Source: Minisyncoccia bacterium (GTDB taxonomy: Bacteria; Patescibacteriota; Minisyncoccia; Phycocordibacterales; UBA918). Taken from it: a stretch of DNA of 64,000 nt. The stretch covers positions 17,648-81,647 of the forward strand of contig JBGSJJ010000005.1 of NCBI GenBank assembly GCA_041742075.1, in the 5' to 3' direction. This document shows positions 4,895 through 57,391 of the stretch, one piece after another. A program made the translations under genes and the position numbers. The first letter of the stretch is position 1; every line of letters starts with the position of its first letter. Below the pieces are notes generated by a model that saw nothing but the letters and a program-made list of their open reading frames with translations, had not been told where the DNA came from and made no database searches.

Positions 4895-4926
4895 AACGTA
4901 CCAAGCTACCTAGAGCCTGTACTTTC

Positions 4927-5646: not shown

Positions 5647-5680
5647 CCTAGACGGTCTACATAACCTATAAAGCTTTTCT

Positions 5681-6529: not shown

Positions 6530-6557
6530 TATGAATGCACAGGGGACCAGCGTGCAG

Positions 6558-6585
6558 TTGAATTTTTATAAATATGTGCTATAAT
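6558..6585 (+). promoter_or_regulatory. Candidate sigma70 promoter for the second ATP-grasp gene (TTGAAT-N16-TATAAT)
   Basis: TTGAATttttataaatatgtgcTATAAT about 60 bp upstream of the ATG at 6646. Confidence 0.35.
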
Positions 6586-42213: not shown

Positions 42214-45200
42214 ATGAACATATTTACTTTTACCAACCTATTTACAGCGCGCTGCTTTGCCGTTGTAACATTATTAGCAGTAGTGATGAGTGCCTTTCCG
42301 GCGCCTTTTTTTGTGTCGGAAGCCGAGGCCTTCAACAACGCACCAAGACTTGAAAAAGTGAAGTTCTGTCACGCGACTCCAAATGGTGACAGTCCATTTC
42401 AACTACAAAAGAAGTATGCGTTTGAAATAGCGCTTGGGCACCATAATCATGGTGGTGATATTTTCCCTACCTACGATGGTCCAGTGATAAATAATTACGG
42501 TGGCCAGAACCTAGATACTGAATATCCAGAGTATGGAGGTATGACTGGGGCAGACATCCTTAAGGCTGACTGTGAAGTACCAGAAACAGCCAAGCTTACC
42601 CTCGTAAAGAACGTTGTTGGTGGAGAAGCTGAAGCTAAAGACTGGAATTTGTCGGCAACCGCTCTCGGAGAAAACGATAACTTTGACTTTGAAGTTGAAG
42701 GAGACGAAGAAGGGGCTGAATACCTCATAGAGGCTGGTGTAGCATATGAAATTTCTGAAGAAGGTTCTGAAGAAAACTATACGCTTACGTCACTCACTTG
42801 TGACAAAGAAGGTGCTCTTTCAAACATTTACGAAGTTACCCTTGAAGAAGGAGACGATGTAACTTGTACCTTCACGAACACGTATGTACCTCCACACGTA
42901 CCAAAGGTGACGATTGAAGCGACAAAGATCATCTGTGAAGACGAAGCACTGCTTCCAAATGATGGGTACACAAACATTGACGCCAATACTGCAACTAACT
43001 TTTTGGCTGAAAACCCATCATGTTACCTCGCGCAAGATTGGGATTTCCAATATGCGGTTGGTGGCCTCAGTAACGGTAACTCACCAGATAATGATGGTGT
43101 ACTTGATGAGAATGGTTGGGACGAAGAAAATACTGTGTCTACAGTCGGAGGAGTAGCGACAATGGTTATCGAAATGAGTGAACTTGGTCAAAACCGAACT
43201 GTTTCAGTTCGAGAAGTGATGCAAGAAGGCTACATTCCATTTACTGGTCAACAAGGGGGTCCAGTTTCAGCAGAACTCTACTGCGCAAACGATGCGGCTA
43301 ACTTTGACAACCTTGAATGGGTACCAGTTTCAGCTGACAACACCTACCACTGTGTAGCTTGGAACGTGCCTGAACTCGAAACAGTAGAAGCGTGTAAGCT
43401 CGACGAAGCAGGCAACAAGCTTGCTGGTTGGGAAATGACCATCTCAAATGGTGATGATGAAGACGATGTAACGAAGGTAACTGGAGAAAACGGCTGTACG
43501 ACCTTTGAAGTAAATCCAAATAATGGTCCTTGGACAGTCTCAGAAACAGTCAAGACTGGCTGGGATCAAGTAGAAGTAGATGCTAATTGGGGCTATATAG
43601 TAGGAGAGGAGGGATCACAGTCATGTGAATTCTTTGGAAAACGTGCAGAAGCACGTACTAATATAGTTGTTGTAGATACTGAAGAGGGCTACAACTGTAC
43701 CTTCACCAACGAAGCAGCACCAATCTGTGTAGATAAGCCAAATGGTGACTTCGCCAATGATTACCAAGACGTAGACCAGAAAAAGCGAAAGGATGGCTCA
43801 GCTATTACTAATCCTGATCGAATTGACCCAAGCAAGGTGCTTGGCGCTAATGACTGGGTAGCGAACGGCAGTACTGGTTTCTTTGCACTTGGCTTTGGTG
43901 GTTCAATCGTGGTTGAGTTTGACTCATACGTACCAAACGTAGCAGGCAACGACATCACTGTCTTTGAAGCAACTAATGGCACCTACCCAGCTGAAACAGC
44001 CTTGGTAGAAGTAAGTCAAGACGGAAGTGACTGGGAAACAGTTGGTACTGCCAACAACACAAACGCTGGCAAAATTACAAACTTTGACTTCGATTCAACT
44101 GGCCTCGCATGGATTAAGTTTGTCCGAGTTACCGATACTAGTAATTCAGCGCTTCACACGAGCGATGCAGATGGCTTTGACTTAGACGCAGTGAAGGCGA
44201 CCCAAACAGTGTGTGTTCCTCCTGAGGAAGCACCAGTTTGTTCAGTAACGATTGTGAGTGATGAAACAAACATCGTTGGCGCTATGTTCGCGAAACTTGT
44301 TACCTTTATTCACAATGACTGGGATGCGATTGTCGCAGCACCAAGTGCGTGGATTTGGGGAGATGACCCGGTAGCTGACCCAGTAAACGAGACTATCCAG
44401 ACCTTTGAAAAGACCTTTGGTTGGAATGGTCCAGTTACTTCAGCTGTCCTCACGATTGCCGCTGATAACAGCTACGCTGTAGCGGTTAACGGTGACGCAG
44501 CGGGAAGTGACGCAACTGAAAAGAACTTTATTGTGGCTGACGTGCACGACCTGTCTGGCTTTATTGACCAAGGCAACAACACGCTCGCAGTTACCGTAAA
44601 GAACTGGGCACAAGCAAATGGAACTACTAAGAGTAATCCAGCTGGTCTTAAGTACGAACTCGTTATCACTGGTTCAGATGAGAACTGTGATGTACCGTAC
44701 GAAGAAGAAGTAGAGCCAGTAGACGTTACTATCTGTAAATACGACGCTAAGGAAAACGAACTAGCTGGATGGACACTCTCACTCCTTGGCAACAAGGTAG
44801 AAGATGTGGTTGTTCCAGCTACGAATGGTACTGGTGTAGACACGACAGCTGTCTTAAGTGGCGGTAAGTCATACGTAGCCAAGGCTATGGGTACTTGGGA
44901 CAATAACCGAGGCCCGCTCAACATTGTTGACGCTGAGTACTCAACTGAAGATACTTGGGCAACTTACATGAACGGCTTTGATGGCTACGGAGAAGATATT
45001 CTCGAGCTATCAGTAAACGGTCTTCTCGGAGACTGGGGAGCATACAACAGTGCTCATACTTACCTGCAAGCGTTTACGCAAGCAACTGGTACTGCAAACG
45101 TAGCGGTACAAGATACGTTCTATGGTGATAATACCGGTTCACTCAATGTCAGTATCTTTGAAGGATACGCTGGTATTACTGACAAAAACGGTTGCGTTAC

Positions 45201-46761
45201 CTTCAGTGACGTGACTCCAGGTTCATACACTATCGGTGAAGTGATGCAAGACGGTTGGACTAATCAGTCAGGTCTTGGTGAAGTAACTGTCAGTGAAGAA
45301 AACAACGAGTTTACCGTGGTAAACAAGGAAATTGATGAGGTAGCAACAGTTATCGCACACAAAATCGTGTGTACAGACGAAACTGACCTACCAAACTGGG
45401 CGGAACTAGAAAACACAGTTGGCGCAACCACAGCACTTGACTGGGTAAATGACCCAGAGAACCCAAGTTGTGAGCTTGTACCAGACTGGAAATTCCAGTG
45501 GACACTGCCACAAGGCGATCAGTCTAACCCAGACAATGACATTTCTGATGGAAATGAACTCTATGGTGAAGCAGAAGGTTGGACAACTTTTGGACCAACC
45601 GATGCAAATGGTATGACTACACTTACCCTCACTGAAGAAGACTTAGGTGATGCTGGGTATATCTGGATTCGTGAAGTGCTTCAAGACGGACACCTACCAT
45701 TTACCTATGGTCCAGACCAGCAAAACAACAATGACGACGTGAGTGCTGAAATCTATTGTCATAAAGACGTAAAGAACTATGACAACTATGACCGAGTAGA
45801 CGGTATTGAAGTTGGTGAGACATATAACTGTGTAGCTTGGAATCATATCGAGCCATCAGAACCAGTTTGTCTCGAACCAGAGACAAACCTCATTGCAAAC
45901 GGTGGTTTTGAAGCCAACGATGTAACTGATGGCGCTGGCTGGCAAATATTTGCTTCAGGCACGCCACTTCTAGAGTGGTTGGTAAGTTGGATTAATCCAA
46001 CTGGTGCTCCAGAAGTAGCCTCACTTGAACTCCATGGTGGAGTAAATGGTTGGCTACCAGCTGAAGGTCTGCAGTACGCAGAGCTTGATTCAGATTGGCA
46101 AGGTCCAGGTGGAGGCAACGGTGAAGCGGCATCAGTTTCTATCTCACAGACTGTGCCAACACTCGCCGGTGTAGACTACAACCTCGCATGGGACTTCTCA
46201 CCACGACCTGACCAAAACGGTACTGAAAACGTACTTGAGGTATTGGTTAACAACGTACTAGTAGACACTAATACAGCAGCTGGTAACGGTACTCAGACTG
46301 TATGGACAGGGGATTCAGTTACTTTTGAAGGAACTGGTGCTCCAATGACCATTACCTTCCGTGATGCTGGTACAAATAACTCAGTCGGAACCTTTGTTGA
46401 CGATATCTCAGTAAACTGCGTTCGCGGTGAAGGAGATGGCGACGGGGAAGGTGACGGAGATGGCGATAATGACGATACACCAACTATCCCTCCAACTATA
46501 CCAACTCCAGATGATGGTGATAACACCTCAACTCGACTAGAAGGACGTAACTCAGGTGGTTCGTCTGACTCATCAGATACTGAAACTGGCCTTGGTGGTA
46601 ATCCAGAAGGAGAAGTACTTGGTGACCAAGTGTCTGTTGTGCCATTTGGTGCAGCGAACGCTGGTTTCGGAGGAACAGCATCAGACGCCAAAGCAATGGC
46701 ACTGGTGCTTGCCCTTATCCTCGTACTCGCTCTCTTCTCAGTTCGACAGAAGGTTGCGTAA
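42214..46761 (+). CDS. Giant (1515 aa) multidomain cell-surface protein/adhesin with a C-terminal tripartite sorting signal
   Basis: Signal peptide. Repeated beta-sandwich modules ending in TCTFTN / YxCVAWN motifs. A jelly-roll region. A DUF642-like domain (LIANGGFE...AELDSD...ISQTVPTLAGVDYNLAWDFSPRPD). A GDGDGEGDGDGD spacer. Then EVLGDQVSVVPFGAANAGFGGT, a hydrophobic helix and the basic tail SVRQKVA. Confidence 0.7.
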   Translation: MNIFTFTNLFTARCFAVVTLLAVVMSAFPAPFFVSEAEAFNNAPRLEKVKFCHATPNGDSPFQLQKKYAFEIALGHHNHGGDIFPTYDGPVINNYGGQNLDTEYPEYGGMTGADILKADCEVPETAKLTLVKNVVGGEAEAKDWNLSATALGENDNFDFEVEGDEEGAEYLIEAGVAYEISEEGSEENYTLTSLTCDKEGALSNIYEVTLEEGDDVTCTFTNTYVPPHVPKVTIEATKIICEDEALLPNDGYTNIDANTATNFLAENPSCYLAQDWDFQYAVGGLSNGNSPDNDGVLDENGWDEENTVSTVGGVATMVIEMSELGQNRTVSVREVMQEGYIPFTGQQGGPVSAELYCANDAANFDNLEWVPVSADNTYHCVAWNVPELETVEACKLDEAGNKLAGWEMTISNGDDEDDVTKVTGENGCTTFEVNPNNGPWTVSETVKTGWDQVEVDANWGYIVGEEGSQSCEFFGKRAEARTNIVVVDTEEGYNCTFTNEAAPICVDKPNGDFANDYQDVDQKKRKDGSAITNPDRIDPSKVLGANDWVANGSTGFFALGFGGSIVVEFDSYVPNVAGNDITVFEATNGTYPAETALVEVSQDGSDWETVGTANNTNAGKITNFDFDSTGLAWIKFVRVTDTSNSALHTSDADGFDLDAVKATQTVCVPPEEAPVCSVTIVSDETNIVGAMFAKLVTFIHNDWDAIVAAPSAWIWGDDPVADPVNETIQTFEKTFGWNGPVTSAVLTIAADNSYAVAVNGDAAGSDATEKNFIVADVHDLSGFIDQGNNTLAVTVKNWAQANGTTKSNPAGLKYELVITGSDENCDVPYEEEVEPVDVTICKYDAKENELAGWTLSLLGNKVEDVVVPATNGTGVDTTAVLSGGKSYVAKAMGTWDNNRGPLNIVDAEYSTEDTWATYMNGFDGYGEDILELSVNGLLGDWGAYNSAHTYLQAFTQATGTANVAVQDTFYGDNTGSLNVSIFEGYAGITDKNGCVTFSDVTPGSYTIGEVMQDGWTNQSGLGEVTVSEENNEFTVVNKEIDEVATVIAHKIVCTDETDLPNWAELENTVGATTALDWVNDPENPSCELVPDWKFQWTLPQGDQSNPDNDISDGNELYGEAEGWTTFGPTDANGMTTLTLTEEDLGDAGYIWIREVLQDGHLPFTYGPDQQNNNDDVSAEIYCHKDVKNYDNYDRVDGIEVGETYNCVAWNHIEPSEPVCLEPETNLIANGGFEANDVTDGAGWQIFASGTPLLEWLVSWINPTGAPEVASLELHGGVNGWLPAEGLQYAELDSDWQGPGGGNGEAASVSISQTVPTLAGVDYNLAWDFSPRPDQNGTENVLEVLVNNVLVDTNTAAGNGTQTVWTGDSVTFEGTGAPMTITFRDAGTNNSVGTFVDDISVNCVRGEGDGDGEGDGDGDNDDTPTIPPTIPTPDDGDNTSTRLEGRNSGGSSDSSDTETGLGGNPEGEVLGDQVSVVPFGAANAGFGGTASDAKAMALVLALILVLALFSVRQKVA

Positions 46762-46784
46762 GTAGAATGACGCTTTAAACAAAA

Positions 46785-46816
46785 GGCCCGCCAGCTCTAT
46801 GCTGGCGGGCCTTTTG
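46785..46816 (+). terminator. Intrinsic terminator after the giant surface-protein gene
   Basis: AAGGCCCGCCAGCtctatGCTGGCGGGCCTTTT. Confidence 0.65.
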
Positions 46817-47054
46817 CCTTGAAAGTGGCCTAATCAATCACTATGTATTATATACGAGGACAGAAGACGGTTCTGTCAACCTTGTGCAACTGTGTGAGCA
46901 ACGTATGATTGTACTATTCCATGATGACTACTTGCGGCCACTATTGCTAGGGGACAAAAATGCGCACATTTTATGTGCGCTTTTTTGTACCCTCGCGAAG
47001 AGTTTTGGGTAGTCATTTGGGCATTATTAATTACTACTAAGTAAATACATTACT

Positions 47055-48458
47055 ATGAATACAAAACGATTAATCATGAGCCTCGGTATGCTCGCCTTTG
47101 TAGGTGCCGTGGTGGTAGGAGGAACCGGCGCGTTCTTTAGTGACCAAGAAGCGTCTGTCGGCAACGTGTTTGCCGCCGGTGACGTGGATGTTGAGATTCT
47201 AAACATTACTCATTCACCAGCTGAGCCAAACCTAGTTGGTTTTGAAGTATCTGAAGAAAGCTTCACGTTTTCTTTTGCTGACCTTAAGCCACTTGATACT
47301 GGAACTGTTACCTATACAATCCAAAATGATTCAAACCCAGCTTATGTCTGTGCCATGGTGGAAGAGACTGGAAACAATGACAACGCGACTAATGACCCGG
47401 AAGAAGACGCTGGTGATGACTCACCCGGAGTTGGTGAGGGTGAACTGGGACAATTTCTTAGTTTCAAGTTTGGTGATGAAACAGGCACCCTTGAAGCTAT
47501 CAGTGGTCTCTGGCAGACTGTTGGTGAGGTTGTTAACAATAACTCTATTCCTGCAGAAATTGACTACTGTTTCGGAGAATTTGACGGGCTAAACTGTGTG
47601 CTTGACGAAGATGCTGTGTATAACATGGCTCAGACAGATCAGCTTACAGCTGACGTGAAGTTCTACGCTGTGCAGACCCGAAACAATGAAGATTTCGACT
47701 GTTCTAGCTTGAATGAAGAGGTTGAACCAGATGTTTTAGCTAGTTATGCGACAGGTTTTGAACCAAATACATTCGCAGTTGGAAACATTAACACACAAGA
47801 TAATTGGGAAAAAACAGGTCCATTCGATGCTGCGGTTGTAAACAATCCTGCGATTGAAGGGTTGCAGTCACTTCGTATTTCAAATGCAGTTACGAGTGGC
47901 AGTTTTGGAGATCAGACCTTCTCACCTGAGCTTGCTATAGGAGCTGGGGAGACAGGAGTAGCTCCGGCAAAACGATTTGAGGCGGAATTCGAAATTTCTT
48001 CAATGCAAGTTGCTGAACAACCAGGCTTAGCGGTAACAGTTTCGCCAGACGATGGTAGTGGGTCACGAATGAGTTTCCTTCGTTTTTCAGATACACCAGC
48101 GGGAATTGATGTAACATTCTTCGATGCTACAAACCCTGGACCACTACCAACTGCGACAGCATTTAACCCGACTGTGATAGCGTCACTTGATCGAAGTATC
48201 TCTCACACTGTAAAGATGACTCTAGATTTTGTAGATGGACCTGGAAACGATATTGTTAAGGTCTACATTGATGGTGTACTTGAGCACACAGGAACTACTT
48301 GGGAAGACTATTATCGATTTGATTCAGAGCAATCAGGAAATGGAAATACTCTGTTTGCTGTTGATTCACTTCTATTCCGAACTTCAGGTACAGCAGCTCC
48401 AGCCACCTCTGGTGCAGGTTACTTGTTTGACACTTTAGTACTTACAACTAGTAACTAA
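47055..48458 (+). CDS. TasA/CalY/camelysin-family (peptidase M73-like) secreted protein with a SipW-cognate signal peptide and a C-terminal jelly-roll extension
   Basis: N-terminus ..VVVGGTGAFFSDQEASVGNVFAAGDVDVEI (SipW-cognate class). F.FADLKPLDTG..IQN and FYAVQTRNNEDF match camelysin core motifs. About 250 aa of extra C-terminal domain. Confidence 0.65.
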   Translation: MNTKRLIMSLGMLAFVGAVVVGGTGAFFSDQEASVGNVFAAGDVDVEILNITHSPAEPNLVGFEVSEESFTFSFADLKPLDTGTVTYTIQNDSNPAYVCAMVEETGNNDNATNDPEEDAGDDSPGVGEGELGQFLSFKFGDETGTLEAISGLWQTVGEVVNNNSIPAEIDYCFGEFDGLNCVLDEDAVYNMAQTDQLTADVKFYAVQTRNNEDFDCSSLNEEVEPDVLASYATGFEPNTFAVGNINTQDNWEKTGPFDAAVVNNPAIEGLQSLRISNAVTSGSFGDQTFSPELAIGAGETGVAPAKRFEAEFEISSMQVAEQPGLAVTVSPDDGSGSRMSFLRFSDTPAGIDVTFFDATNPGPLPTATAFNPTVIASLDRSISHTVKMTLDFVDGPGNDIVKVYIDGVLEHTGTTWEDYYRFDSEQSGNGNTLFAVDSLLFRTSGTAAPATSGAGYLFDTLVLTTSN

Positions 48459-48578
48459 CGAAATGTAGGGGTTGCATAATTTAGTCTTGACGAAAGTTAC
48501 TTCACACTTGAGAGGAGTAACTGGGTCAAGGCTTAAGTAATGCCTGATGAAAATTAGTTACTAATTATAACGAACGAT

Positions 48579-49883
48579 ATGAAACGAATTATTGGAAGTA
48601 GTGTGATGCTCTTGGCTGTTTTGGCCATTATAGTGGGTGGTACTGGTGCGTTTTTCAGTGATGAAGAGGTTTCAACTGGAAACGTGTTTACCGCTGGTGC
48701 TATCGACCTCACGGTAGACCAAGCGGAAGCCAGCTATAACGGCGAAAGTTGTGTAAACAACTGTGTCGCGAGTGGAAATGAACTCATTATTAATGGTGGT
48801 TTTGAAGACCCTGTGTTGAATAATCCAAACTACCAGATGTTTCCAACCGGTATCCTTGGTTGGAGTGTTGAGTCTGGGGCTGGTATTGAAGTTCAGCGAA
48901 ACGCAGCTGGTGCACCACATAGTGGAGCACAGCATGTTGAACTCGATAGTGATAACTCAACCACGATGTTCCAGACTCTTACCACAGTGGCCGGACAAAA
49001 GTACCGACTGTCATTTTGGCACTCACCACGACCGAATCGTCCCAACAACGACAACGTGATTGGTTATGAGGTGCAGGTGGTAAGTGGTGCAACCACTATT
49101 ATTGATGGTGTTGTTGGTGTTAATAACGCCGGTGGCAATACTACGGGCAATACTGTGTGGACACAGTACACGTACGACTTTATTGCAACTGATACTTCTA
49201 CCAAAATCATCTTTAGTGACCAAGGGACTGTTTTGAGTAACACGTACGGCGGATACCTCGACGATGTATCAGTTAAAACAATTACCTGTTCAGTTAGCAC
49301 CTACGCTGATACTCAGGGTGGATTCTGTGAACTTTGGGAGGCGACTGACCTCACGACCCAGAAGTTCTTTAATTTCTCTGATGTGAAGCCACAAGACTCT
49401 GGAACCAACCTTATTTCTCTCCACGTTGAAAACAACGAAGCCTACATGTGTCTCACTGTGGCTAACCAGGAAGATAATGAAAACCTAACTAATGATCCTG
49501 AACTTGAAGCAGGTGATGTACTCCCAGCTGGCGAGCTGTCTGAACACCTGATGGTAGCTGGTTGGTATAGTGACGAAAATGGTGCCAATCTCTCACCAAT
49601 GTTTGGTCCAACGTACATGAATGACCTTGAAGACATTACGTTTGCTGACAGTGACTCGACCGAAGACCCGATTGAGCCCGGCGCGACAAAGTATGTAAAC
49701 CTGGCGTGGTGTCTTGGTACGCTTACGGTTACCGGTAACACCTTTACCTGTGACGGTGATGTACCAAACATCAATCGAACTCAGACCGACTCTCTTTTAG
49801 CTGACCTTCAGTTCTACGCGGTCCAAACCCGAAACAACGAGGAATTCTCTTGCGAAGCGGTTGAAGAAACCCCAGATCTCTAA
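48579..49883 (+). CDS. TasA/camelysin-family protein with a SipW-cognate signal peptide and an inserted DUF642-like domain
   Basis: N-terminus ..IIVGGTGAFFSDEEVSTGNVFTAGAIDLTVD. Inserted LIINGGFEDP...VELDSD...FQTLTTVAGQKYRLSFWHSPRPN. Then F.FSDVKPQDSG and FYAVQTRNNEEF. Confidence 0.65.
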   Translation: MKRIIGSSVMLLAVLAIIVGGTGAFFSDEEVSTGNVFTAGAIDLTVDQAEASYNGESCVNNCVASGNELIINGGFEDPVLNNPNYQMFPTGILGWSVESGAGIEVQRNAAGAPHSGAQHVELDSDNSTTMFQTLTTVAGQKYRLSFWHSPRPNRPNNDNVIGYEVQVVSGATTIIDGVVGVNNAGGNTTGNTVWTQYTYDFIATDTSTKIIFSDQGTVLSNTYGGYLDDVSVKTITCSVSTYADTQGGFCELWEATDLTTQKFFNFSDVKPQDSGTNLISLHVENNEAYMCLTVANQEDNENLTNDPELEAGDVLPAGELSEHLMVAGWYSDENGANLSPMFGPTYMNDLEDITFADSDSTEDPIEPGATKYVNLAWCLGTLTVTGNTFTCDGDVPNINRTQTDSLLADLQFYAVQTRNNEEFSCEAVEETPDL

Positions 49884-49961
49884 GGAACTGGTAGTCTAAC
49901 TCTGTGCGGGCAAACACCATTTGCTCGCACTCCTTAGGCTAGCAGGGTCTATTCGTACATT

Positions 49962-50486
49962 ATGCAAACACTTTTAAAACTCGGCTACTATCTACTGGCA
50001 CTGTCTGTGCTGGTCTTCGGTATGCTTTTAGTTTTGATTCAGACACAGGTTCTGTCGGGATATGAAGTGCGGATTGTGCAGTCAGGCTCAATGGAGCCGG
50101 CGCTTACTACTGGGAGTGTGGTACTGATACGGGAGCAAGCGAGCTATCTTGTGGGCGATATCATCACCTACGGTGATGAGCGTTCTGGCAGTCTACCAAC
50201 CACGCACCGTATCGTGGCTGACCAACTACAGGAAGGAAAGATTGCCTTTACTACCAAAGGTGATGCAAACGATAGTGAAGACCAGTCAGTTACGAGCCTT
50301 GAGTCTGTGCGCGGTAAAGTGATTTTAGACATACCATATCTCGGATATTTGCTCGATTTTGCCAGACAACCACTCGGGTTTGCGCTCCTTATCGGTGTGC
50401 CAGCCGGGCTGATTGTGTTTGAAGAAGTTGGGTCAATTTGGTCAGCGGTACGAAATCGTAAAGAAGACGAAATAGAAAAAGTATGA
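49962..50486 (+). CDS. sipW: Signal peptidase I, SipW type (S26B, eukaryotic/archaeal-like)
   Basis: TM helix, then VQSGSMEPAL (catalytic Ser) and GDIITY..., the length and motif order of SipW. ATGA overlap with the next gene. Confidence 0.8.
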   Translation: MQTLLKLGYYLLALSVLVFGMLLVLIQTQVLSGYEVRIVQSGSMEPALTTGSVVLIREQASYLVGDIITYGDERSGSLPTTHRIVADQLQEGKIAFTTKGDANDSEDQSVTSLESVRGKVILDIPYLGYLLDFARQPLGFALLIGVPAGLIVFEEVGSIWSAVRNRKEDEIEKV

Positions 50487-51328
50487 GGTATCAACCACTA
50501 CAACAAGTATGGCAAAAATCCATCACACTGATGGCGATTCTGGCTGTACTTGGTGTACCAGTGACGACGGAGAGCTTTTTCACGAACCTTGAGACGTCAA
50601 CTGCTCAGGGTTTTGTCGCGACTGAACTGATTCTTGAAACACCTGCACCTATCGCTCCAGTCACCGTTGGTCCGGGGGTGTCGCTTAGTGAAGTAAGGAT
50701 AGTTCCAATTCTCACCACTGAAGCCAGTACTGAGTCATTTTTTGAACTGACTAGTCAAGCAGTCAGTAGTGACGGTCTCTTTTGTGATGCGCTTAAGCTC
50801 AGCGCTTCATGGGAAGCTTTTTCAGTCAGTAGCCACCCAGACACTCTTGATTCGGCCAGTTTGACTGACTATGGTGACTGGCAACTGACGCTAGACTACG
50901 ACGTAACCCAACATGACTTCGAAACGGGGGCTACCTGCACTATTACGCTTTCGGTTGAAGCCTGGCAAGCCAGTATGTCGCAAGAAACCGCTGGGTATCG
51001 CGACACGACCGAGGTAGAACTTGTCGTGACCGCTGACATGTCGCTCGTGGATTCTTTGCATACTCTCGGTGCTCGCGCTTCGGTCGCTGGACTTCCACTG
51101 ACTCAGCTGAGTATCTTGCTTGATGAACCAGAAATAGTTGAAGTTGAGCCAGTTGAGGCGGGTATTCTAGAGCCAACAGTAGTTGAATCGCCAATTGTGG
51201 AGGAACCAGTCGAGCCTGCTCATGAAGACCTGCCGGAAGTAGAGGAAGTTGATGCACAGCCTGAGGAAGAAGTACCAGAAGCTGAAGCACCACCTGAACC
51301 AGAGCCTACACCTGAAGAAACATCATGA
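50483..51328 (+). CDS. TapA-like secreted acidic protein with a SipW-cognate-like N-terminus
   Basis: TM segment, then TTESFFTNLETSTAQGFVATELIL (FF[ST][DN].E.S...F.A..L.L pattern). C-terminal E/P-rich acidic tail. Translationally coupled to sipW and to the next gene. Confidence 0.4.
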   Translation: MRYQPLQQVWQKSITLMAILAVLGVPVTTESFFTNLETSTAQGFVATELILETPAPIAPVTVGPGVSLSEVRIVPILTTEASTESFFELTSQAVSSDGLFCDALKLSASWEAFSVSSHPDTLDSASLTDYGDWQLTLDYDVTQHDFETGATCTITLSVEAWQASMSQETAGYRDTTEVELVVTADMSLVDSLHTLGARASVAGLPLTQLSILLDEPEIVEVEPVEAGILEPTVVESPIVEEPVEPAHEDLPEVEEVDAQPEEEVPEAEAPPEPEPTPEETS

Positions 51329-52380
51329 TAACTACTCTTAAAACAACCTGGGGAGGACTTTTCTGTGGGTTATTGCTATGGCTTATGCTTCCTGTAAGTG
51401 CGCTCGCGGCCGACTTGGCAGTCGTGTTTGAAGCGACGCCACTTTTTTCGAGCGCCAACATTGTACCCGGTGATAGTGTGAGTCGGACTATCGAAGTAAG
51501 TAATACCGGTACCGAAACGGAAGCTCTACTTCTGTCAGTGGCAAACACTTTCAGTAGTGGGTTGAGTGAGGTGATGTTACTTACGGTAACAAGTGGAAGT
51601 GATAGCTTTTTTGAGGGTACCTTTGTGGAGTTTTTTACCGCTACCCCGGTACCCCTGGGCGATATAGCTGATAGTTCTAGTCGTACCTACACCCTCACGG
51701 CTTCATTGCCAAGTGGGATAGGTAACGAATACCAGCTCGAAACGCTCGGCTTTGACCTCGTGATTGGTTTTGAAGGAGGTGAAACGGTGACGGATGGAGA
51801 GCCAGAAAGAAGTAGTGGTGGAGGCGGCGGAGGTGGTAGTTTTGACCTGTTTAATGAACGAGTAGTGGCGGTAGAACCAAGTACAGGAAGCGCGACAGTG
51901 ACGTGGAATACGAATCGGAACAGTTCCTCATATCTGATTTGTGGCAACCTTGAGGACGGACCGTTTTCCCTTAGTACCAACCCTCCGCTTTTTGGATACG
52001 TGTTTAGTGTGCCAGAAGAAGATACCGATACCGTCTCACACAGTATGACGCTGACTGATTTGGCGCTTGGTAGCTATGAGTGTCGGCCGGCTAGTCGAGA
52101 GGAATCAATTGATGATTTTACCGTAGGGCGAGTCGTAGAGTTTGACTTCACAAGCAATTTTGTCCCGGTTGGTTCAGTCTTAGGGGTCGGAACGACCTCG
52201 GGTGTGGATGTAGTACCTATGCCTGACGTTAAGGGAGCACAAGTATCCCTCTTACCTGATGGTGGACTTAACCTTGGTTTTGGCTACGTACCATATCGCA
52301 CACTGGTTCCGGTCGGTGTGGGCCTACTCTTAGTAGTGATTCTTTTAGTCTACTTACGTCGTTTCGTCAGAAGGAGCTAG
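51325..52380 (+). CDS. Membrane-anchored camelysin/TasA-like plus FN3-like protein with a C-terminal hydrophobic/basic anchor
   Basis: Sec signal (SALAADL). LFSSANIVPGDSVSRTIEVSNTG (camelysin NxKPGD-like). Gly-rich linker. FN3-like EPSTGSATVTWNTN. C-terminus ..LVPVGVGLLLVVILLVYLRRFVRRS. Confidence 0.4.
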   Translation: MITTLKTTWGGLFCGLLLWLMLPVSALAADLAVVFEATPLFSSANIVPGDSVSRTIEVSNTGTETEALLLSVANTFSSGLSEVMLLTVTSGSDSFFEGTFVEFFTATPVPLGDIADSSSRTYTLTASLPSGIGNEYQLETLGFDLVIGFEGGETVTDGEPERSSGGGGGGGSFDLFNERVVAVEPSTGSATVTWNTNRNSSSYLICGNLEDGPFSLSTNPPLFGYVFSVPEEDTDTVSHSMTLTDLALGSYECRPASREESIDDFTVGRVVEFDFTSNFVPVGSVLGVGTTSGVDVVPMPDVKGAQVSLLPDGGLNLGFGYVPYRTLVPVGVGLLLVVILLVYLRRFVRRS

Positions 52381-52533
52381 TAAGCAATTTGACAAGATTG
52401 TAAATATACGGTTATTCACAACTGTGGATAATTATTGACAAGACAATAAAACTCCATTGCGGTATATACTTACCGTATGTGAGACTTTTATAAGTCACAT
52501 TTTATATAAATAGTAGATAAATGAATTAGAGTT

Positions 52534-54108
52534 ATGAATTATAAAATAGTAGAACAAACTGCCAAGAACACCCTCGTGATTTTGGCAACCCTCGCACTCC
52601 TTACTAGTGCGTTCCCGGCGTCTTTAGCGTCAGCTCAAGTTGTTTTAGACGAACCAGAGTGTTTAATTGAAACACCAAACTTGATTGATAATGGTGGTTT
52701 TGAAGACCCTAATGTCACTGATGCAGCAGGTTGGGACATTTTTGACGAATCAGAAACAAACTGGAATGTAGAATGGATAAATGGTGGTGAAAGTGCTCCA
52801 GATCCAGAACTTGAAATCCATAAGGGCTCTGTATTTGGTTGGGGAGTAGAAGAAGGTGAGCAGTATGCTGAACTTGATAGTGACTTTGACGGTCCAGCTG
52901 GTTCAATCCAAGATGAACCAGCTTCACTTGAAATCTCTCAGAAAGTAGCAGTTGAAGAAGGAGCAACGTATAAGTTGTCATGGCTTTTCTCAGCTCGGCC
53001 AGATACTGGAGAAAGTGATAATGAACTAAATGTAGAAGTTGCACTTGGCGATGGAAATGTAAATACAACCAATAGTGCAAATGGAGGTTCTGATACAGAT
53101 TGGACGGCTGATTATCTTGTTTTTGAAGCAGATACAGAGAACATCGTCGTTTCATTCACTGATGAAGGAACACCAAACTCTCGCGGAACATTCCTCGATG
53201 GTGTGTCGCTTTGTAAGGTAGCAGAACCAGAAACTTCAACTGTAGACTTAACTGTCTGTAAGCTTGATACGCAAGAAGCAGGAGTAGAAGGTTGGGAATT
53301 TGAAGTTACCAACGATTCTGACTCAGAAGGTGGTTCATTTATTGTGACGACTGGTGAAGACGGGTGTGTTACGACACAAGTAGATCCAGAATTTGGTCCA
53401 TGGTATGTGTATGAAGTTGAACAGGAAGGATGGGTGTATGTAAATCATAGTGCTGATTTTGGTGAGGCGATTGATGTGCAGGGGAACAATGCCTGTCGAT
53501 TCTTCAATCGAGAAATAATCGATGAACAACTAACTACTAGATTAGTTAAGGTACTAGATACTGCTCCAGAGCTAAACTGCACGTTTGTAAATGAGCGCGA
53601 GCCAGAAGAAGGGAATGATGACCTTACCTGTTCACTTACAACAAGCGAAGACTCAGTCAGTAGTGGCGAAGAATTTACCCTTACTTGGGAGACTACAAAT
53701 GCTTCAAACGTATCAATCACTAACTTAGGCGATGTAGCGGTAGATGGTTCAGCTGAAACTACAATCGATACTGACACAACCTTTACACTTATCGCTAGCC
53801 GTTTTGTTGGAGAAGAAGAGACTGAAGAAACTGTACAATGTAGTGTAGAAGTCGACCGTCAATCAGGCGGCGGAGGTGGGGGAACACGAGTTAATCGTGA
53901 CGAACCAGAAGAAGATGAGGAGCCAGAGCCTGAAGTCTTGGGTGACAGTACTTCAATTCCACAAGGCGTAGTACTCGGTGACCAAATTTCAGCCGTACCA
54001 CTTGGTGCAGCTTCAACGGGAGCTGGTGGAACTTCACCAGTAGCACCAGTACAGCCGTATCTCGCTGCTTTGGCTATCAATGCAGTTCGAGTTGGAAAAG
54101 TGAAATAA
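52534..54108 (+). CDS. Secreted DUF642-like-domain surface protein with the same C-terminal sorting signal as the giant adhesin
   Basis: Signal peptide. LIDNGGFEDP...AELDSD...ISQKVAVEEGATYKLSWLFSARPD. Beta-sandwich repeats. Then VVLGDQISAVPLGAASTGAGGT, a hydrophobic stretch and RVGKVK. Confidence 0.6.
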   Translation: MNYKIVEQTAKNTLVILATLALLTSAFPASLASAQVVLDEPECLIETPNLIDNGGFEDPNVTDAAGWDIFDESETNWNVEWINGGESAPDPELEIHKGSVFGWGVEEGEQYAELDSDFDGPAGSIQDEPASLEISQKVAVEEGATYKLSWLFSARPDTGESDNELNVEVALGDGNVNTTNSANGGSDTDWTADYLVFEADTENIVVSFTDEGTPNSRGTFLDGVSLCKVAEPETSTVDLTVCKLDTQEAGVEGWEFEVTNDSDSEGGSFIVTTGEDGCVTTQVDPEFGPWYVYEVEQEGWVYVNHSADFGEAIDVQGNNACRFFNREIIDEQLTTRLVKVLDTAPELNCTFVNEREPEEGNDDLTCSLTTSEDSVSSGEEFTLTWETTNASNVSITNLGDVAVDGSAETTIDTDTTFTLIASRFVGEEETEETVQCSVEVDRQSGGGGGGTRVNRDEPEEDEEPEPEVLGDSTSIPQGVVLGDQISAVPLGAASTGAGGTSPVAPVQPYLAALAINAVRVGKVK

Positions 54109-54126
54109 TTACTTAGTTCAGGAAAC

Positions 54127-54158
54127 AAAACCGCGCGACTTTTAGTCGCGCGGTTTTC
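54127..54158 (+). terminator. Intrinsic terminator
   Basis: AAAACCGCGCGACttttaGTCGCGCGGTTTT. Confidence 0.65.
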
Positions 54159-54214
54159 GTCTATGCTCACCCCTTAGTACACTCCGAACTAAAAGAATGA
54201 TAATCTAAAGCGTA

Positions 54215-55213
54215 ATGAATACAGTTGCTACAAGTATTACTCCTGTTTTTTCTCACGAAACAGCCGGCAAGATTATGGCTACTCAGGTGCCGGTATTTTT
54301 AGTTTCGGAATCGCTCTCACACGTAGAAGAAGTTTTACGTAAGGATGCGCTTACGTTCAAAACAATCAACTATATTTACTTTGTTGATGAGGCCAGAAAG
54401 CTGGTTGGCGTGCTCTCAATTAAAGAGTTGCTATGCTGTAGTGACACGTATACGGTAGAGCAAATAACTACTAAAAAAATTTTTAGTGTTACCGCTGATA
54501 CCGACCAAGAACATATTGCGTTTCTCGCCCTGAAGCATAGTATCAAGGCGGTGCCTGTAGTTGATGATTCTGGTGTGTTTCTTGGAGTAGTGTCTTCAGA
54601 TACCATTCTTTCCATTCTTCATAGTGAGTCAATTGAAGACGCCCTGCATCATACGGGAACAGTGATTTTTGAAGACCCACTCGCGAGTCTCCGAACTGGT
54701 TCGGCTTGGCTTCACTTTAAGAAGCGAATCCCGTGGCTCATTATGGGCTTGGGTGGAGGAATTGGAGCCGCACTCGTCATTGAGGCCTTTGAGTCAACCC
54801 TAGAACAATTACTTATTTTGGCTACGTTTATTCCGCTTGTTGTCTATATGGCTGATGCGGTTGGCTCTCAGTCACAGACCATTTTTATTCGTTCACTCGC
54901 TCTCCCCGACACGCTGAGTATACGAGGCTATATCTTCCGAGAGCTAAAAGTAACTGCCATGATTGCCCTGTCACTCAGCGCTATTATGTTTATCGTGCTA
55001 TCGCTTTGGTTTGCATCATTTTTGGTAGGGACTATTGTCGCACTGACTATTTTATGTGGCGTGAGTGTGTCTGTGCTGATTGCGATGACCTTGCCGTATA
55101 CGTTTAAAAAGTTTAACTTTGACCCAGCACTTGCCAGTGGTCCTTTTGCAACGGTACTGTGTGACACTTCAAGCCTCCTCATCTATTTTTGTATTGCTAG
55201 TCTGATCTTATAG
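54215..55213 (+). CDS. MgtE-like divalent cation transporter, short form lacking the N-domain (CBS pair plus TM domain)
   Basis: CBS-pair region, then the MgtE TM signature FIPLVVYMADAVGSQSQTIFIRSL and 5 TM helices. Paralog of the gene at 233-1495. Confidence 0.75.
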   Translation: MNTVATSITPVFSHETAGKIMATQVPVFLVSESLSHVEEVLRKDALTFKTINYIYFVDEARKLVGVLSIKELLCCSDTYTVEQITTKKIFSVTADTDQEHIAFLALKHSIKAVPVVDDSGVFLGVVSSDTILSILHSESIEDALHHTGTVIFEDPLASLRTGSAWLHFKKRIPWLIMGLGGGIGAALVIEAFESTLEQLLILATFIPLVVYMADAVGSQSQTIFIRSLALPDTLSIRGYIFRELKVTAMIALSLSAIMFIVLSLWFASFLVGTIVALTILCGVSVSVLIAMTLPYTFKKFNFDPALASGPFATVLCDTSSLLIYFCIASLIL

Positions 55214-55267: not shown

Positions 55268-55945
55268 ATGAAGAAAGCGGGTATACAGACCGAAGGGAAC
55301 CAGAGTACACGATGGCTGTTTGCTAAACTAGCAGTATTTTTGGTAGTTTTTCTCGCGCTAATGCTTTTTTTGAAAGTCTCTTCAACTGAGGCACCGGCAC
55401 CAGATACCATAGAAGAGTCGGTTACCGCAAGTACAACAATTCAAGGTACGATTCTTTCAGAATCGAGTCCTAACCGACTCCGTATTCCGAAGGTTAATAT
55501 TGATACTACTTTTGAAAAAGCACTCGGACTCAATGAAGACAAAACGGTTGAAGTACCCGTTGGGTATGAGCAGGTTGGGTGGTACAAGTTTGGGCCGACG
55601 CCAGGGGAGCTTGGGCCGGCAGTGATTCTTGGTCATGTTGATTCAGTTGATGGTCCGGCGGTTTTTTGGTCACTGGGGCAACTGACTGCTGGCGACGAGA
55701 TTTTTATTGACCGTGAGGACGGTAGTACAGCTCGTTTTGTGGTGACTGAACTTAAAAAAGTATCGCAAAATGATTTCCCGAGTCAAGTAGTGTATGGCGA
55801 CATTGATCACGCTGGACTCAGACTCATTACGTGTAGTGGAACGTTTAATCGGGGTGCCCAGCGCTATAGCCATAACCTAATTGTGTTTGCCAAGCTCGCT
55901 GAGGAACCAACCGGCGAAGAAGAAACCGAAGCAGAAACTCTCTAG
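55268..55945 (+). CDS. Sortase (class E/F-like transpeptidase)
   Basis: N-terminal TM anchor. VILGHVDS (catalytic His), LRLITCSG (TLxTC Cys), downstream Arg in TFNRG. 225 aa. Confidence 0.8.
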   Translation: MKKAGIQTEGNQSTRWLFAKLAVFLVVFLALMLFLKVSSTEAPAPDTIEESVTASTTIQGTILSESSPNRLRIPKVNIDTTFEKALGLNEDKTVEVPVGYEQVGWYKFGPTPGELGPAVILGHVDSVDGPAVFWSLGQLTAGDEIFIDREDGSTARFVVTELKKVSQNDFPSQVVYGDIDHAGLRLITCSGTFNRGAQRYSHNLIVFAKLAEEPTGEEETEAETL

Positions 55946-56056: not shown

Positions 56057-57391
56057 ATGATTAATTGGCTTAAAAACTTTTTTATACCAAACGAAGCTAA
56101 TAGCTTCGCTCCGCATAGTCTCCAAAAAAAAGCCGTCGTAGCCATGACTTTCTTGGTGTTTTTGTCTTTTCTGGGCACCAACTTGCAGTCACTTTTGTGG
56201 ACCAGTTCTAACTGGATGATAGGTACCGTTTTACCAGCAGTTATTGTAGAACTCACGAATGACGAGCGCTCTGACGCATCACTCACACCACTCCGTAGAA
56301 GTAGTGTGCTCGATGAAGCGGCCCGCCTCAAAGCACTTGATATGGCGAAGAATGAGTACTTCTCACACTATAGCCCAACCGGAGTCTCCCCATGGCACTG
56401 GTTCGCGCAAGCTGACTATAGCTTTGTGCATGCTGGAGAAAACCTCGCTATTCACTTTACTGACTCAGGTGAAGTTGTTGACGCGTGGATGAACTCACCG
56501 ACCCACCGAGAAAACATCATGAATGGTAACTATCGTGAGATAGGAGTTGGAACTGCTGAGGGTTCATATCAGGGGTACAAAACAGTGTATGTTGTACAAC
56601 TATTTGGTACGCCGTCAGCTGAACCGGCGGTAGCGGCGGCAACCGCCCCCGCACCAGCTCCAATTGTGCCGGTAGCACCTCCGGTAGTTGAAGAAGTACC
56701 CGCGTCTGATGACGTAGCATCTGAAGCCGTTAGTCTAACTGAAGAGGTGGTGCTTGTACCGGCTGAACCAGTTGAGGTAACGACCACAACGCTGGTACGG
56801 CAGTTTTCGCTTGAAGACATTGTCTCAATAGAGTCTGAATGGATTGATCCAAACCCTGACCTGGCTGATGAAGAGTATACGAGTTACAACGTAACGCTCA
56901 CGGACGGAGAAGTAGTGACCTTTGAACTCTATGGTATGGAAACGCAGGGTAGCCAAGAACAACGTTTCCAAGCAGCGGGCTATGTAGGCAACATCGAAGC
57001 GTTTTTTGCTCTCGCGAGTGGTTCTGAGACTGAAGTTGTAGTCGACACGACATTGGCAGGAGTAGAAACAACTGAAACTGGTATTGTGATGTATTCAGAT
57101 CACCTTTCAACCACCACCGGTGGCGTACCAGCTACAATTGGTTCAGACTTTAATACAGCTGGTGATACGGTGCCGTATGCGTACCAGCTCGCGACCCAAC
57201 CAAACACGGTGTTGCAGATTCTCTATACTATTATTGCGCTCTTTGTGATTGGTGCCCTGACCACCTCAGTACTCGTCGAAATGCGCAAGCAACAACCAGT
57301 TCAGATAGCCTATAGTCTCTCGTTGCTCGTGGTGATGGCCGGACTGTGGTCTCTCCATATCTTTGTCACTGCTGGGGTGTTGATAGCGTAA
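56057..57391 (+). CDS. CAP/SCP/PR-1-like domain protein with an Ala/Pro-rich linker and a C-terminal TM region
   Basis: CAP signatures LDEAARLKALDMAKNEYFSHYSPTG...HFTDSGEVVDAWMNSPTHRENIMNGNYREIGVG...YVVQLFG. PAPAPIVPVAPP linker. C-terminal TM helices. Confidence 0.7.
   Translation: MINWLKNFFIPNEANSFAPHSLQKKAVVAMTFLVFLSFLGTNLQSLLWTSSNWMIGTVLPAVIVELTNDERSDASLTPLRRSSVLDEAARLKALDMAKNEYFSHYSPTGVSPWHWFAQADYSFVHAGENLAIHFTDSGEVVDAWMNSPTHRENIMNGNYREIGVGTAEGSYQGYKTVYVVQLFGTPSAEPAVAAATAPAPAPIVPVAPPVVEEVPASDDVASEAVSLTEEVVLVPAEPVEVTTTTLVRQFSLEDIVSIESEWIDPNPDLADEEYTSYNVTLTDGEVVTFELYGMETQGSQEQRFQAAGYVGNIEAFFALASGSETEVVVDTTLAGVETTETGIVMYSDHLSTTTGGVPATIGSDFNTAGDTVPYAYQLATQPNTVLQILYTIIALFVIGALTTSVLVEMRKQQPVQIAYSLSLLVVMAGLWSLHIFVTAGVLIA

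Follow-up and report, generated by a model that had tools for sequence, protein, structure and literature searches.

A DUF642-type jelly-roll domain carried by two wall proteins and nested in a TasA-like protein of a Patescibacteria genome

What does a single domain do when it recurs in three surface proteins of quite different build? The question is raised by a 64,000-nucleotide stretch of DNA (here called the window) from an uncultured, ultra-small bacterium of the Patescibacteria (CPR). The proteins concerned are a giant surface protein, the second of two adjacent TasA/camelysin-like proteins, and a 524-aa surface protein that we refer to as p524 (Table 1).

Table 1. Features of the locus; positions are counted from the first nucleotide of the window.
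Feature	Position	Strand	Description
Giant surface protein, 1515 aa	42214..46761	+	Sec signal peptide, DUF642 copy 1, C-terminal sorting-like tail
DUF642 / choice-of-anchor-C-like copy 1	45868..46419	+	Giant protein aa 1219-1402; long-loop subtype; Cys1219 and Cys1402 at flanks; C-terminal tail ~65 aa downstream
Giant protein, C-terminal sorting-like signal	46615..46758	+	VLGDQVSVVPFGAANAGFGG, then hydrophobic helix, then basic end
First TasA/camelysin-like protein, 467 aa	47055..48458	+	SipW-type signal peptide; insert-less TasA-like core aa 1-225
Second TasA/camelysin-like protein, 434 aa	48579..49883	+	Carries nested DUF642 domain
Mature N-terminal segment of 434-aa protein	48645..48749	+	GAFFSDEEVSTGNVFTAGAIDLTVD..., equivalent to TasA donor strand and linker
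DUF642 / choice-of-anchor-C-like copy 2	48762..49289	+	434-aa protein aa 62-237; short-loop subtype; nested within Cys-flanked loop, TasA-like core
Putative TasA-like beta-sandwich core	49326..49880	+	434-aa protein aa 250-434
SipW-type (archaeal-type) signal peptidase I	49962..50486	+	Directly downstream of 434-aa gene
Secreted protein, 281 aa	50483..51328	+	Family unassigned; N-terminus TESFFTNLETSTAQGFVA resembles TasA donor strand
Secreted protein, 351 aa	51325..52380	+	C-terminal LLPDGG...TM...RRFVRRS tail; conserved 3' of sipW
p524 surface protein, 524 aa	52534..54108	+	Signal peptide, N-terminal DUF642 copy 3, SpaA-like module, further beta-rich region, C-terminal sorting-like tail
DUF642 / choice-of-anchor-C-like copy 3	52660..53214	+	p524 aa 43-227; long-loop subtype; Cys43 and Cys227 at flanks
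p524, C-terminal sorting-like signal	53971..54105	+	VLGDQISAVPLGAASTGAGG, then hydrophobic stretch, then basic end
Class F sortase	55268..55945	+	NF033748 175.6 bits (cut-off 166); Pfam Sortase 78 bits

A single domain of 175-190 aa accounts for all three regions, which are its paralogous copies. An earlier note on this DNA had described the same domain in three surface proteins, and all three copies were recovered where it had placed them. In pairwise BLASTP with compositional adjustment, the giant copy is 45% identical to the p524 copy (E = 4e-44) and 33% identical to the TasA-nested copy (E = 4e-21), and the latter two share 29% identity (E = 1e-15). The three-way alignment contains 45 invariant columns, among them NGGFE, ELDSD, Q, G..Y.L, RP, W and D..GT..N..G...D..S. 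When the three copies were made into an HMM and every six-frame ORF of the window was searched with filters off, only these copies were recovered (E from 1e-100 to 2e-74); a hidden fourth copy was rejected, the next match having an E-value of 0.3. That the resemblance arose by chance or from composition can be dismissed for practical purposes, as BLASTP similarity despite compositional adjustment, the invariant columns and the HMM search all refute it, and each copy independently matches curated family models.

Among these models, Pfam DUF642 (PF04862, gathering score 27 bits) recognizes two of the three copies above its gathering score when they are searched in isolation, the TasA-nested copy (34.2 bits, profile positions 2-157 of 157) and the p524 copy (32.7 bits). 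The whole 434-aa protein scores 31.1 bits, and the giant copy lies below the gathering score (20.8 bits, E = 3.6e-4). The NCBIfam choice-of-anchor C model (TIGR04362, length 157, curated cut-off 120 bits) matches the TasA-nested copy (75.2 bits, E = 6.6e-21) and the giant copy (47.4 bits, E = 2.4e-12, positions 1-157 of 157) over its full length, and the p524 copy at positions 60-156 of 157 only (40.1 bits, E = 4.2e-10). None of the three copies reaches the curated cut-off; judged by their sequences, they are homologous to TIGR04362 but outside its curated subfamily threshold. Since both models match, similarity of the kind whose absence the earlier note had named as grounds for abandoning its proposal (to DUF642 or to galactose-binding-like folds) was found, and its DUF642 assignment holds.

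The domain superposes with high Z-scores on solved galactose-binding-like and CBM4-9-type jelly rolls, which bears out the galactose-binding-like fold that had been suggested. By Z-score and rmsd, the nearest small-domain neighbors in fold searches are carbohydrate-binding modules (CBMs) with bound oligosaccharides, including CBM4-2, CBM16, CBM61, and porphyran- and alginate-binding CBMs; there is also a weak match to Pfam CBM_4_9. Against PDB sequences, the three-copy profile gave no matches at E ≤ 1, and a full-length profile of 60 sequences matched CBM4-2 at no better than E = 0.52, with TasA absent. We place the domain with the beta-jelly-rolls, as a DUF642 / choice-of-anchor C family member whose fold class is galactose-binding-like / CBM4-16-61.

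Pfam DUF642 and TIGR04362 describe the same homologous domain as the one found here, sharing NGxFE at the start and D-D-[VI] at the end, and both occur in secreted proteins with varied C-terminal anchor signals. The association with secreted hosts and alternative C-terminal anchoring signals that defines TIGR04362 is also seen in the relatives of our copies, whose tails include LPETGG followed by a transmembrane (TM) helix (locus L020) and a PEP-CTERM-like signal (L070). A VPxGA-type tail is found in the window proteins, in L060 and L074, and in many cluster representatives. What differs here is that the domain is also nested in a TasA-like subunit and is paired with a tail that is neither LPXTG nor PEP-CTERM. 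In plants, DUF642 proteins are apoplastic and consist of two domains, an architecture unlike that of the present hosts. Type B CBMs with CBM_4_9-like jelly rolls (CBM4, CBM16, CBM61, CBM22) are only 13-23% identical to the domain and, unlike it, come with attached glycoside hydrolases. Looking up the clusters of the domain's top relatives yielded almost no names. NCBI names such proteins "DUF642 domain-containing," and because the family is already catalogued and named, the domain finding alone is ordinary.

The 434-aa protein, the TasA-like host, scores above the gathering score of Pfam Peptidase_M73 (PF12389; 27.6 against 22.5 bits) in a match limited to profile positions 3-50 of 196 (aa 2-49), and the 467-aa protein scores below it (16.5 bits). 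Both exceed the cut-off of 19 bits for the SipW-type signal peptide model TIGR04088 (24.1 and 20.5 bits, respectively) and align with each other (BLASTP E = 1e-20); aa 226-467 of the 467-aa protein, an uncharacterized C-terminal domain of ~240 aa, have no Pfam matches. In fold searches with the full-length AF2 model of the 434-aa protein (pLDDT 81.8), the CBM-like insert dominates and TasA is not among the matches. With a scaffold-only model (aa 240-434), the TasA fiber is the best PDB match of the putative beta-sandwich core. Comparison of the CPR TasA-like core with Bacillus subtilis TasA gave E = 0.2 in hhalign, for the C-terminal strand only, and E = 0.57 in BLASTP. Because these direct sequence links failed, we assign the protein to TasA through its N-terminal Pfam and TIGRFAM matches, the operon context and the scaffold-only model. 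Features in common with B. subtilis TasA and the tapA-sipW-tasA operon are the SipW-type signal peptide, an adjacent sipW, and a conserved N-terminal segment that aligns with TasA's donor strand (in B. subtilis, residues 28-38; PMC9674648).

Copy 2 had been described as an insertion in this second camelysin-like protein, and insert-less paralogues confirm it by aligning to either side of a ~175-aa gap. The insertion loop is flanked by cysteines and lies just past the stretch aligned to the TasA donor strand. In Patescibacteria the 434-aa protein has more than 100 full-length homologues, and the N-terminal segment is its most conserved part (mean identity 67%, against 50-53% elsewhere), which would indirectly favor polymerization by donor-strand exchange. 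Conservation of the insert matches that of the core (53 and 50% mean identity), so the insert is under purifying selection. VWA and SpaA domains were rejected as alternative inserts, being C-terminal extensions rather than nested domains in the proteins P0084 and P0118.

The signal peptidase encoded next to this gene is well above the TIGR02228 cut-off (98.7 against 51.85 bits) and scores 106.9 bits with the SipW equivalog model. A sipW gene adjoins TasA-like genes in 70 of the approximately 80 loci that we fetched, which include two near-identical copies of the window. The order that recurs in Patescibacteria is a TasA-like gene, a TasA-like gene with DUF642, sipW, in some cases a homologue of the 281-aa protein, and a homologue of the 351-aa protein; the nested architecture followed by sipW is present in dozens of genomes. 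The 351-aa protein is weakly DUF11-like (Pfam DUF11, 18.6 bits) and has homologues in 42 loci, including the near-identical copies of the window; in one locus (L010) a sortase gene directly follows. We did not find the TasA-nested DUF642 architecture described in the literature searched, where the one related report notes that Patescibacteria have PF12389 homologues (PMC9245690). This conserved architecture adds a variant to a domain family and a fold that were already known.

The other two hosts are wall proteins. The giant protein has SpaA-type, prealbumin-like stalk modules (Pfam SpaA_2, 36 bits; SpaA, 32 bits) and weak discoidin-like (F5_F8_type_C) and GH2_N-like modules, and p524 is a mosaic of three modules that also occur in the giant protein (BLASTP module matches). 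A word-limited homologue search for p524 found eight other relatives at E ≤ 0.001, each covering about half of it at most. The two C-terminal tails are alike, with the motif VLG[DE]QxSxVPxGA(P)..GxGG, a TM helix and basic residues, and the same motif occurs in many Patescibacteria proteins, including many that bear the domain. LPXTG is absent from both tails, which have VP[FL]GA instead together with the helix and basic end, and no NCBIfam sorting model matched them above its cut-off (best GVDTG_CTERM, 20.3 bits; cut-off 29). Sortase-anchored Gram-positive adhesins with SpaA/prealbumin-like stalks likewise have a signal peptide and SpaA-type modules, finish in a C-terminal hydrophobic helix and basic residues, and are encoded near a sortase gene; they differ in using LPXTG where we see a VPxGA-type tail and a class F sortase. 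This sortase is the candidate processing enzyme for the tails; among the fetched loci, just 3 have a sortase gene within 10 kb. Thus, the earlier view that the domains are fused to fiber subunits stands for one host, the putative TasA-like fiber subunit, and falls for the two SpaA-stalked wall proteins with anchor-like tails.

Two subtypes of the domain were distinguished, and each is present in TasA-like scaffolds as well as in surface proteins of other kinds. The domain therefore behaves as a shuffled cassette. For the giant copy, the TasA-nested copy from a different genome (L022, E = 1e-40) is a closer match than the one in its own genome. The cluster representatives matched by a profile of the domain number 5127; most are large multi-domain proteins, some with up to 13 copies, and the domain may stand at any position in them (the central 80% of relative positions spans 0.21-0.75). 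A pair of cysteines flanks 128 of 172 domain instances.

Our preferred reading, to which we give a probability of about 0.6, is that one extracellular cassette, borne by two wall proteins and nested in a TasA-like subunit, most likely serves ligand-binding attachment. The cassette would be self-contained, its N- and C-termini probably stapled by a disulfide. It would be displayed in two ways, first on Sec-secreted wall proteins with SpaA-like stalks, whose tails are probably processed by the neighboring class F sortase, and second inside a SipW-processed subunit, in the loop right after the donor-strand-equivalent segment. If such subunits polymerize by TasA-like donor-strand exchange, each would contribute one outward-facing module to a polyvalent fiber. 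The modules could then bind, perhaps in a Ca2+-dependent manner, a ligand on another cell or polymer, and the three surface proteins plausibly form a putative attachment apparatus. We know of no bacterial DUF642 / choice-of-anchor C domain with an established ligand; by analogy of fold, the ligand here would most likely be a glycan.

A non-glycan ligand, whether a host-cell protein or peptide or the cell's own fiber or wall proteins, as in MAM, ephrin-receptor and discoidin-type interactions, seems unlikely to us given the oligosaccharide-bound structural neighbors and the CBM_4_9 match. We are more doubtful that the role is structural and self-directed, with no foreign surface involved and the module tethering the cell's own wall polymer or cross-linking fibers to build a matrix, much as TasA bundles in biofilms. 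In B. subtilis, TasA serves as a matrix scaffold (PMC9674648), an association with C-terminal anchoring signals is what defines the choice-of-anchor family, relatives end in LPETGG or PEP-CTERM-like tails, and in the giant protein the domain adjoins the C-terminal anchor rather than the tip, which is atypical of an adhesin head. However, the p524 copy is at the distal N-terminus and positions in the representative set are unconstrained, so that anchor-proximal placement is not a rule. An enzymatic function, for example as a Ca2+-dependent cyclase like the fold-sharing Stig cyclases, is highly improbable: the matches are below the Pfam cut-off, biosynthetic genes are absent nearby, and display on fiber subunits and on stalked wall proteins, at times in many copies, is what binding modules typically show.

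Extending the attachment reading beyond this locus, we tentatively envisage, at well short of even odds, that many Patescibacteria make a SipW-dependent, TasA-type donor-strand-exchange fiber with a swappable beta-sandwich module (either DUF642 subtype or, in paralogues, a discoidin-like domain) at one fixed loop per subunit. Such a polyvalent, modular fiber might recognize host surfaces, help to set episymbiont host range and act as a second adhesive filament beside type IV pili. To our knowledge, every member of the Patescibacteria in cultivation lives attached to a host microbe. In the literature searched (PMC11623550), type IV pili are so far the one attachment machinery to have been studied. 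A conserved operon for a putative TasA-like fiber with a lectin-type module, together with the wall proteins, offers concrete, testable candidates for host recognition. The TasA scaffold can also accommodate an entire domain immediately after the donor strand, which is relevant to understanding and engineering donor-strand-exchange fibers.

The 281-aa protein encoded after sipW may belong to the same system. A donor-strand HMM ranks it third among 658 ORFs at a non-significant E-value of 1.2, and BLASTP gave no alignment between its N-terminus and that of the TasA-like protein. Its donor-strand-like N-terminus makes it a possible TapA-like nucleator or anchor, a faint lead at this stage. Homologues at the same position in two other loci (L011 and L013) match the TasA N-terminus with E-values of 1e-4 to 1e-5.

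The same domain occurs in three surface proteins: a giant protein, the second of two TasA/camelysin-like proteins (434 aa) and p524, a 524-aa protein. The earlier note had read one series of conserved motifs in these places; it is seen in all three translated proteins, and the positions then assigned agree with our refined ones. A three-way alignment of the copies has 45 invariant columns, and pairwise BLASTP relates the giant copy to the p524 copy (E 4e-44, 45% identity) and to the TasA-nested copy (E 4e-21), and the latter to the p524 copy (E 1e-15). A three-copy HMM, run without filters on all six-frame ORFs, revealed no fourth copy in the window (next match E 0.3). Pfam DUF642 (gathering score 27 bits) matches the TasA-nested copy at full length with 34.2 bits and the p524 copy with 32.7 bits, and the giant copy falls under the threshold at 20.8 bits. 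All three copies also match NCBIfam TIGR04362 (choice-of-anchor C), with scores of 75, 47 and 40 bits (E 7e-21 to 4e-10); two of them cover the profile in full and p524 covers only its positions 60-156 of 157, and none reaches the curated cut-off of 120 bits. CBM_4_9 and HpiC1-like models gave weaker matches. The DUF642-like assignment proposed from the motifs is thus borne out, and the DUF642/choice-of-anchor C family itself is already known and catalogued.

We modeled the 434-aa protein with AlphaFold2 on 60 homologues (mean pLDDT 81.8). Copy 2 is the sole modeled copy, and the fold of copies 1 and 3 is assigned by their sequence homology to it. A Foldseek search of PDB structures returned CBM4-2, CBM16, CBM61, a porphyran-binding CBM and the Fbs1 sugar-binding domain, and because of these matches the predicted fold is a galactose-binding-like/CBM jelly roll. 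The earlier proposal depended on similarity to DUF642 or to galactose-binding-like folds; both were found, in the profile matches and the CBM-like structural neighbors. Sequence searches of the PDB with the domain found nothing, so no close relative of it appears to have been solved. The invariant glutamate of the NGGFE motif and a C-terminal D-D motif would correspond to the structural Ca2+ site of CBM4/22-type modules. Of 172 domain instances, 128 have both a cysteine upstream of NGGFE and another just past the last strand, and each of the three window copies has this pair. The two cysteines may form a disulfide stapling the adjacent domain termini, as would be fitting for a module inserted into loops.

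Three features tie the 434-aa protein to TasA: a SipW-dependent-type signal peptide (TIGR04088, 24.1 bits; cut-off 19), a match to Peptidase_M73 (27.6 bits versus 22.5, over the first 49 residues only) and an archaeal-type/SipW signal peptidase gene directly 3' of its own gene. Its modeled core has TasA as top structural match and may be a fourth. Alignment to insert-less paralogues from the window and other genomes locates the DUF642 domain in place of a short Cys...Cys loop, between the strands AGAIDLTVD and FFNFxDVKPGD. In Bacillus subtilis TasA, residues 28-38 form the donor strand and 39-47 a linker, and residues 48-61 are a strand displaced upon polymerisation (PMC9674648). The loop of the Patescibacteria (CPR) proteins falls at about TasA residue 46/47 in a weak BLASTP alignment, which would place the domain right after the donor-strand and linker segment. 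Conservation across 59 homologues of the 434-aa protein is highest in the N-terminal segment (mean identity 67%), and the insert (53%) is conserved like the core (50%), as expected if the N-terminus serves assembly and the insert has a function.

Three TasA-like paralogues among its relatives (P0072, P0074 and P0081) have a weak discoidin-like (F5/8 type C) match, under the cut-off (aa ~135-207, E about 1e-5), at the site where the 434-aa protein holds DUF642, and two others (P0066 and P0067) carry an unannotated insert of similar size. The TasA-like loop looks like a general insertion hotspot. The first TasA-like protein ends in a ~240-aa domain (aa 226-467; 47730-48455) that matches nothing in Pfam. 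In the related locus L014 (5758-7869), a DUF642-bearing TasA-like protein has a homologue of this domain (E 3e-107) fused to its C-terminal end; therefore, TasA-like scaffolds also accept C-terminal add-on domains. VWA and SpaA domains of relatives were rejected as nested inserts, both being C-terminal additions.

The giant protein and p524 share a Sec-type signal peptide and three modules: the DUF642 domain, a SpaA-like module of the stalk type and a C-terminal tail. The DUF642 domain is anchor-proximal in the giant protein, as it lies ~65 aa upstream of the tail, and distal in p524, where it directly follows the signal peptide. In both, the tail reads VLGDQ[VI]S.VP[FL]GA..G.GG and continues with a hydrophobic stretch and then basic residues. 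The motif differs from LPXTG, and none of the curated NCBIfam sorting models attains its cut-off (best GVDTG_CTERM, 20.3 bits versus 29). The same tail (consensus VLGEQVSxVPxGAPxxGxGG) occurs in many other domain-bearing Patescibacteria proteins; the form VLG[DE]Q[VI]SxVPxGA(P)xxGxGG with hydrophobic helix and basic residues is found in L060, L074, L010 and many of the related proteins P0134-P0153. A class F sortase gene lies 1.2 kb downstream of p524. We infer that this sortase anchors both proteins via the tail, and the CPR class F sortase may recognise its substrates by the VPxGA-type tail. At aa 581-643 and 725-802 the giant protein gives weak matches to discoidin-like (F5/8 type C, NedA-like) and GH2_N sugar-binding-like domains, and so it may hold lectin-type modules of several kinds. 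Visual inspection suggests an internal duplication between its aa ~236-385 and ~1047-1215, which BLASTP at E <= 1e-4 does not report.

A neighbor-joining tree of 38 domain instances, built without bootstrap, splits the domain into a long-loop and a short-loop subtype. The giant and p524 copies are sisters in the long-loop subtype, which in loci L019-L025 is nested in TasA-like scaffolds. The short-loop subtype holds the TasA-nested copy of the window, its orthologues in L003, L004 and L010, and copies in non-TasA proteins of L030, L033 and L036. E-values independently support the same picture: the giant copy matches the TasA-nested domain of L022 at E 1e-40, but that of its own genome only at E 4e-21. 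This pattern suggests that the DUF642 domain is a shuffled cassette.

The 434-aa protein has its homologues in Patescibacteria metagenome-assembled genomes, the named sources including Falkowbacteria, Buchananbacteria, Nomurabacteria, Nealsonbacteria, Moraniibacteriota and Paceibacterota. Among 1.84 billion cluster representatives, the three-copy profile matches 5127 at E <= 1e-3, of which 626 also pass E <= 1e-30. Large proteins prevail among the best 150 of the 5127 (median about 1190 aa), with the domain at any position, in 1 to 13 matched stretches; one of these representatives, from Paceibacterota, already bears the NCBI name 'DUF642 domain-containing protein'. In 78 related loci plus two near-identical copies of the window, the recurring order is one or more insert-less TasA-like genes, the DUF642-bearing TasA-like gene, sipW (70 loci), often a homologue of the 281-aa protein, and a homologue of the 351-aa protein (42 loci). 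In L010, the closest syntenic locus (4861-6584), the 351-aa homologue is followed directly by sortase and CAP-domain genes, whereas in the window (52534-55213) p524 and mgtE intervene, which suggests that the p524 gene joined the cluster later. The Patescibacteria-type TasA-DUF642-sipW cluster was also seen in metagenome-assembled genomes labeled Bdellovibrionales, Gammaproteobacteria or Pseudomonadales (L015, L016, L018, L020, L027, L051, L069 and L071), probably reflecting mis-binning or mislabelling and not a true occurrence in Proteobacteria.

Features of the surface-protein cluster in the window
Feature	Position	Strand	Remark
Giant protein gene	42214-46761	+	1515-aa ORF
DUF642 copy 1 (giant)	45868-46419	+	bounds are flanking cysteines
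First TasA/camelysin-like protein gene	47055-48458	+	ORF
Second TasA/camelysin-like protein gene (434 aa)	48579-49883	+	ORF
DUF642 copy 2 (434-aa protein)	48762-49289	+	bounds are flanking cysteines
sipW-type signal peptidase gene	49962-50486	+	small ORF
281-aa protein gene	50483-51328	+	ORF, downstream of sipW
351-aa protein gene		+	ORF after 281-aa gene
p524 gene	52534-54108	+	524-aa ORF
DUF642 copy 3 (p524)	52660-53214	+	bounds are flanking cysteines
SpaA-like module	giant aa 386-503; p524 aa 232-357		
C-terminal tail	46615-46758 (giant); 53971-54105 (p524); 52249-52377 (variant)		
MgtE homologue (MgtE-type transporter) gene	between p524 and sortase genes	+	
Class F sortase gene	55268-55945	+	175.6 bits versus cut-off 166
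CAP/YkwD-domain membrane protein	56057-57391		directly after sortase gene
GH18 glycoside hydrolase	58080-59417		downstream of CAP/YkwD gene

Past its hydrophobic region, the 281-aa protein begins TESFFTNLETSTAQGFVA (N-terminus nt 50570-50623), similar to the TasA-like N-terminus TGAFFSDEEVSTGNVFTA. A donor-strand HMM ranks it third of 658 ORFs, with an E-value (1.2) that is not significant alone; its positional counterparts in L011 and L013 match the TasA N-terminus at E 1e-4 to 1e-5. This donor-strand-like start parallels TapA, which shares the TasA donor-strand sequence (PMC9674648), and makes the protein a possible TapA-like nucleator, a lead for further work.

The evidence fits best with a binding module that the cell presents in two settings: stalked, anchored wall proteins, and what would be every subunit of a TasA-type fibre. 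That the module binds a ligand follows only from analogy of fold, and glycan is the most likely ligand class, since the nearest small-domain neighbors are oligosaccharide-binding CBMs. A protein ligand or a self-directed or matrix role is less likely, and a catalytic module much less so. Earlier work mentions TasA homologues of Patescibacteria only as a fact of distribution (PMC9245690), and our literature search found no description of a TasA-like subunit with a nested DUF642 or CBM-like domain. The domain family and fold are known, and the nested architecture is new as far as that search shows. The finding is of value mainly because it offers a testable candidate for how episymbiotic Patescibacteria attach to their hosts.

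CAP/YkwD homologues stand at the equivalent place in L003 and L010, and the CAP/YkwD protein and GH18 hydrolase could be members of the same cell-surface programme. Elsewhere the window is ordinary chromosome and encodes TypA, GroEL, RNase J, RluF-like and DinB-like proteins. Upstream of the cluster, 39452-40303 encodes a secreted 283-aa protein with a lamin-tail-domain match just under the cut-off (33.1 versus 34.3 bits) and a long Pro/Glu-rich linker, PPPPPPPPPPPPDPEEEEEEDEPPPPPPPP.
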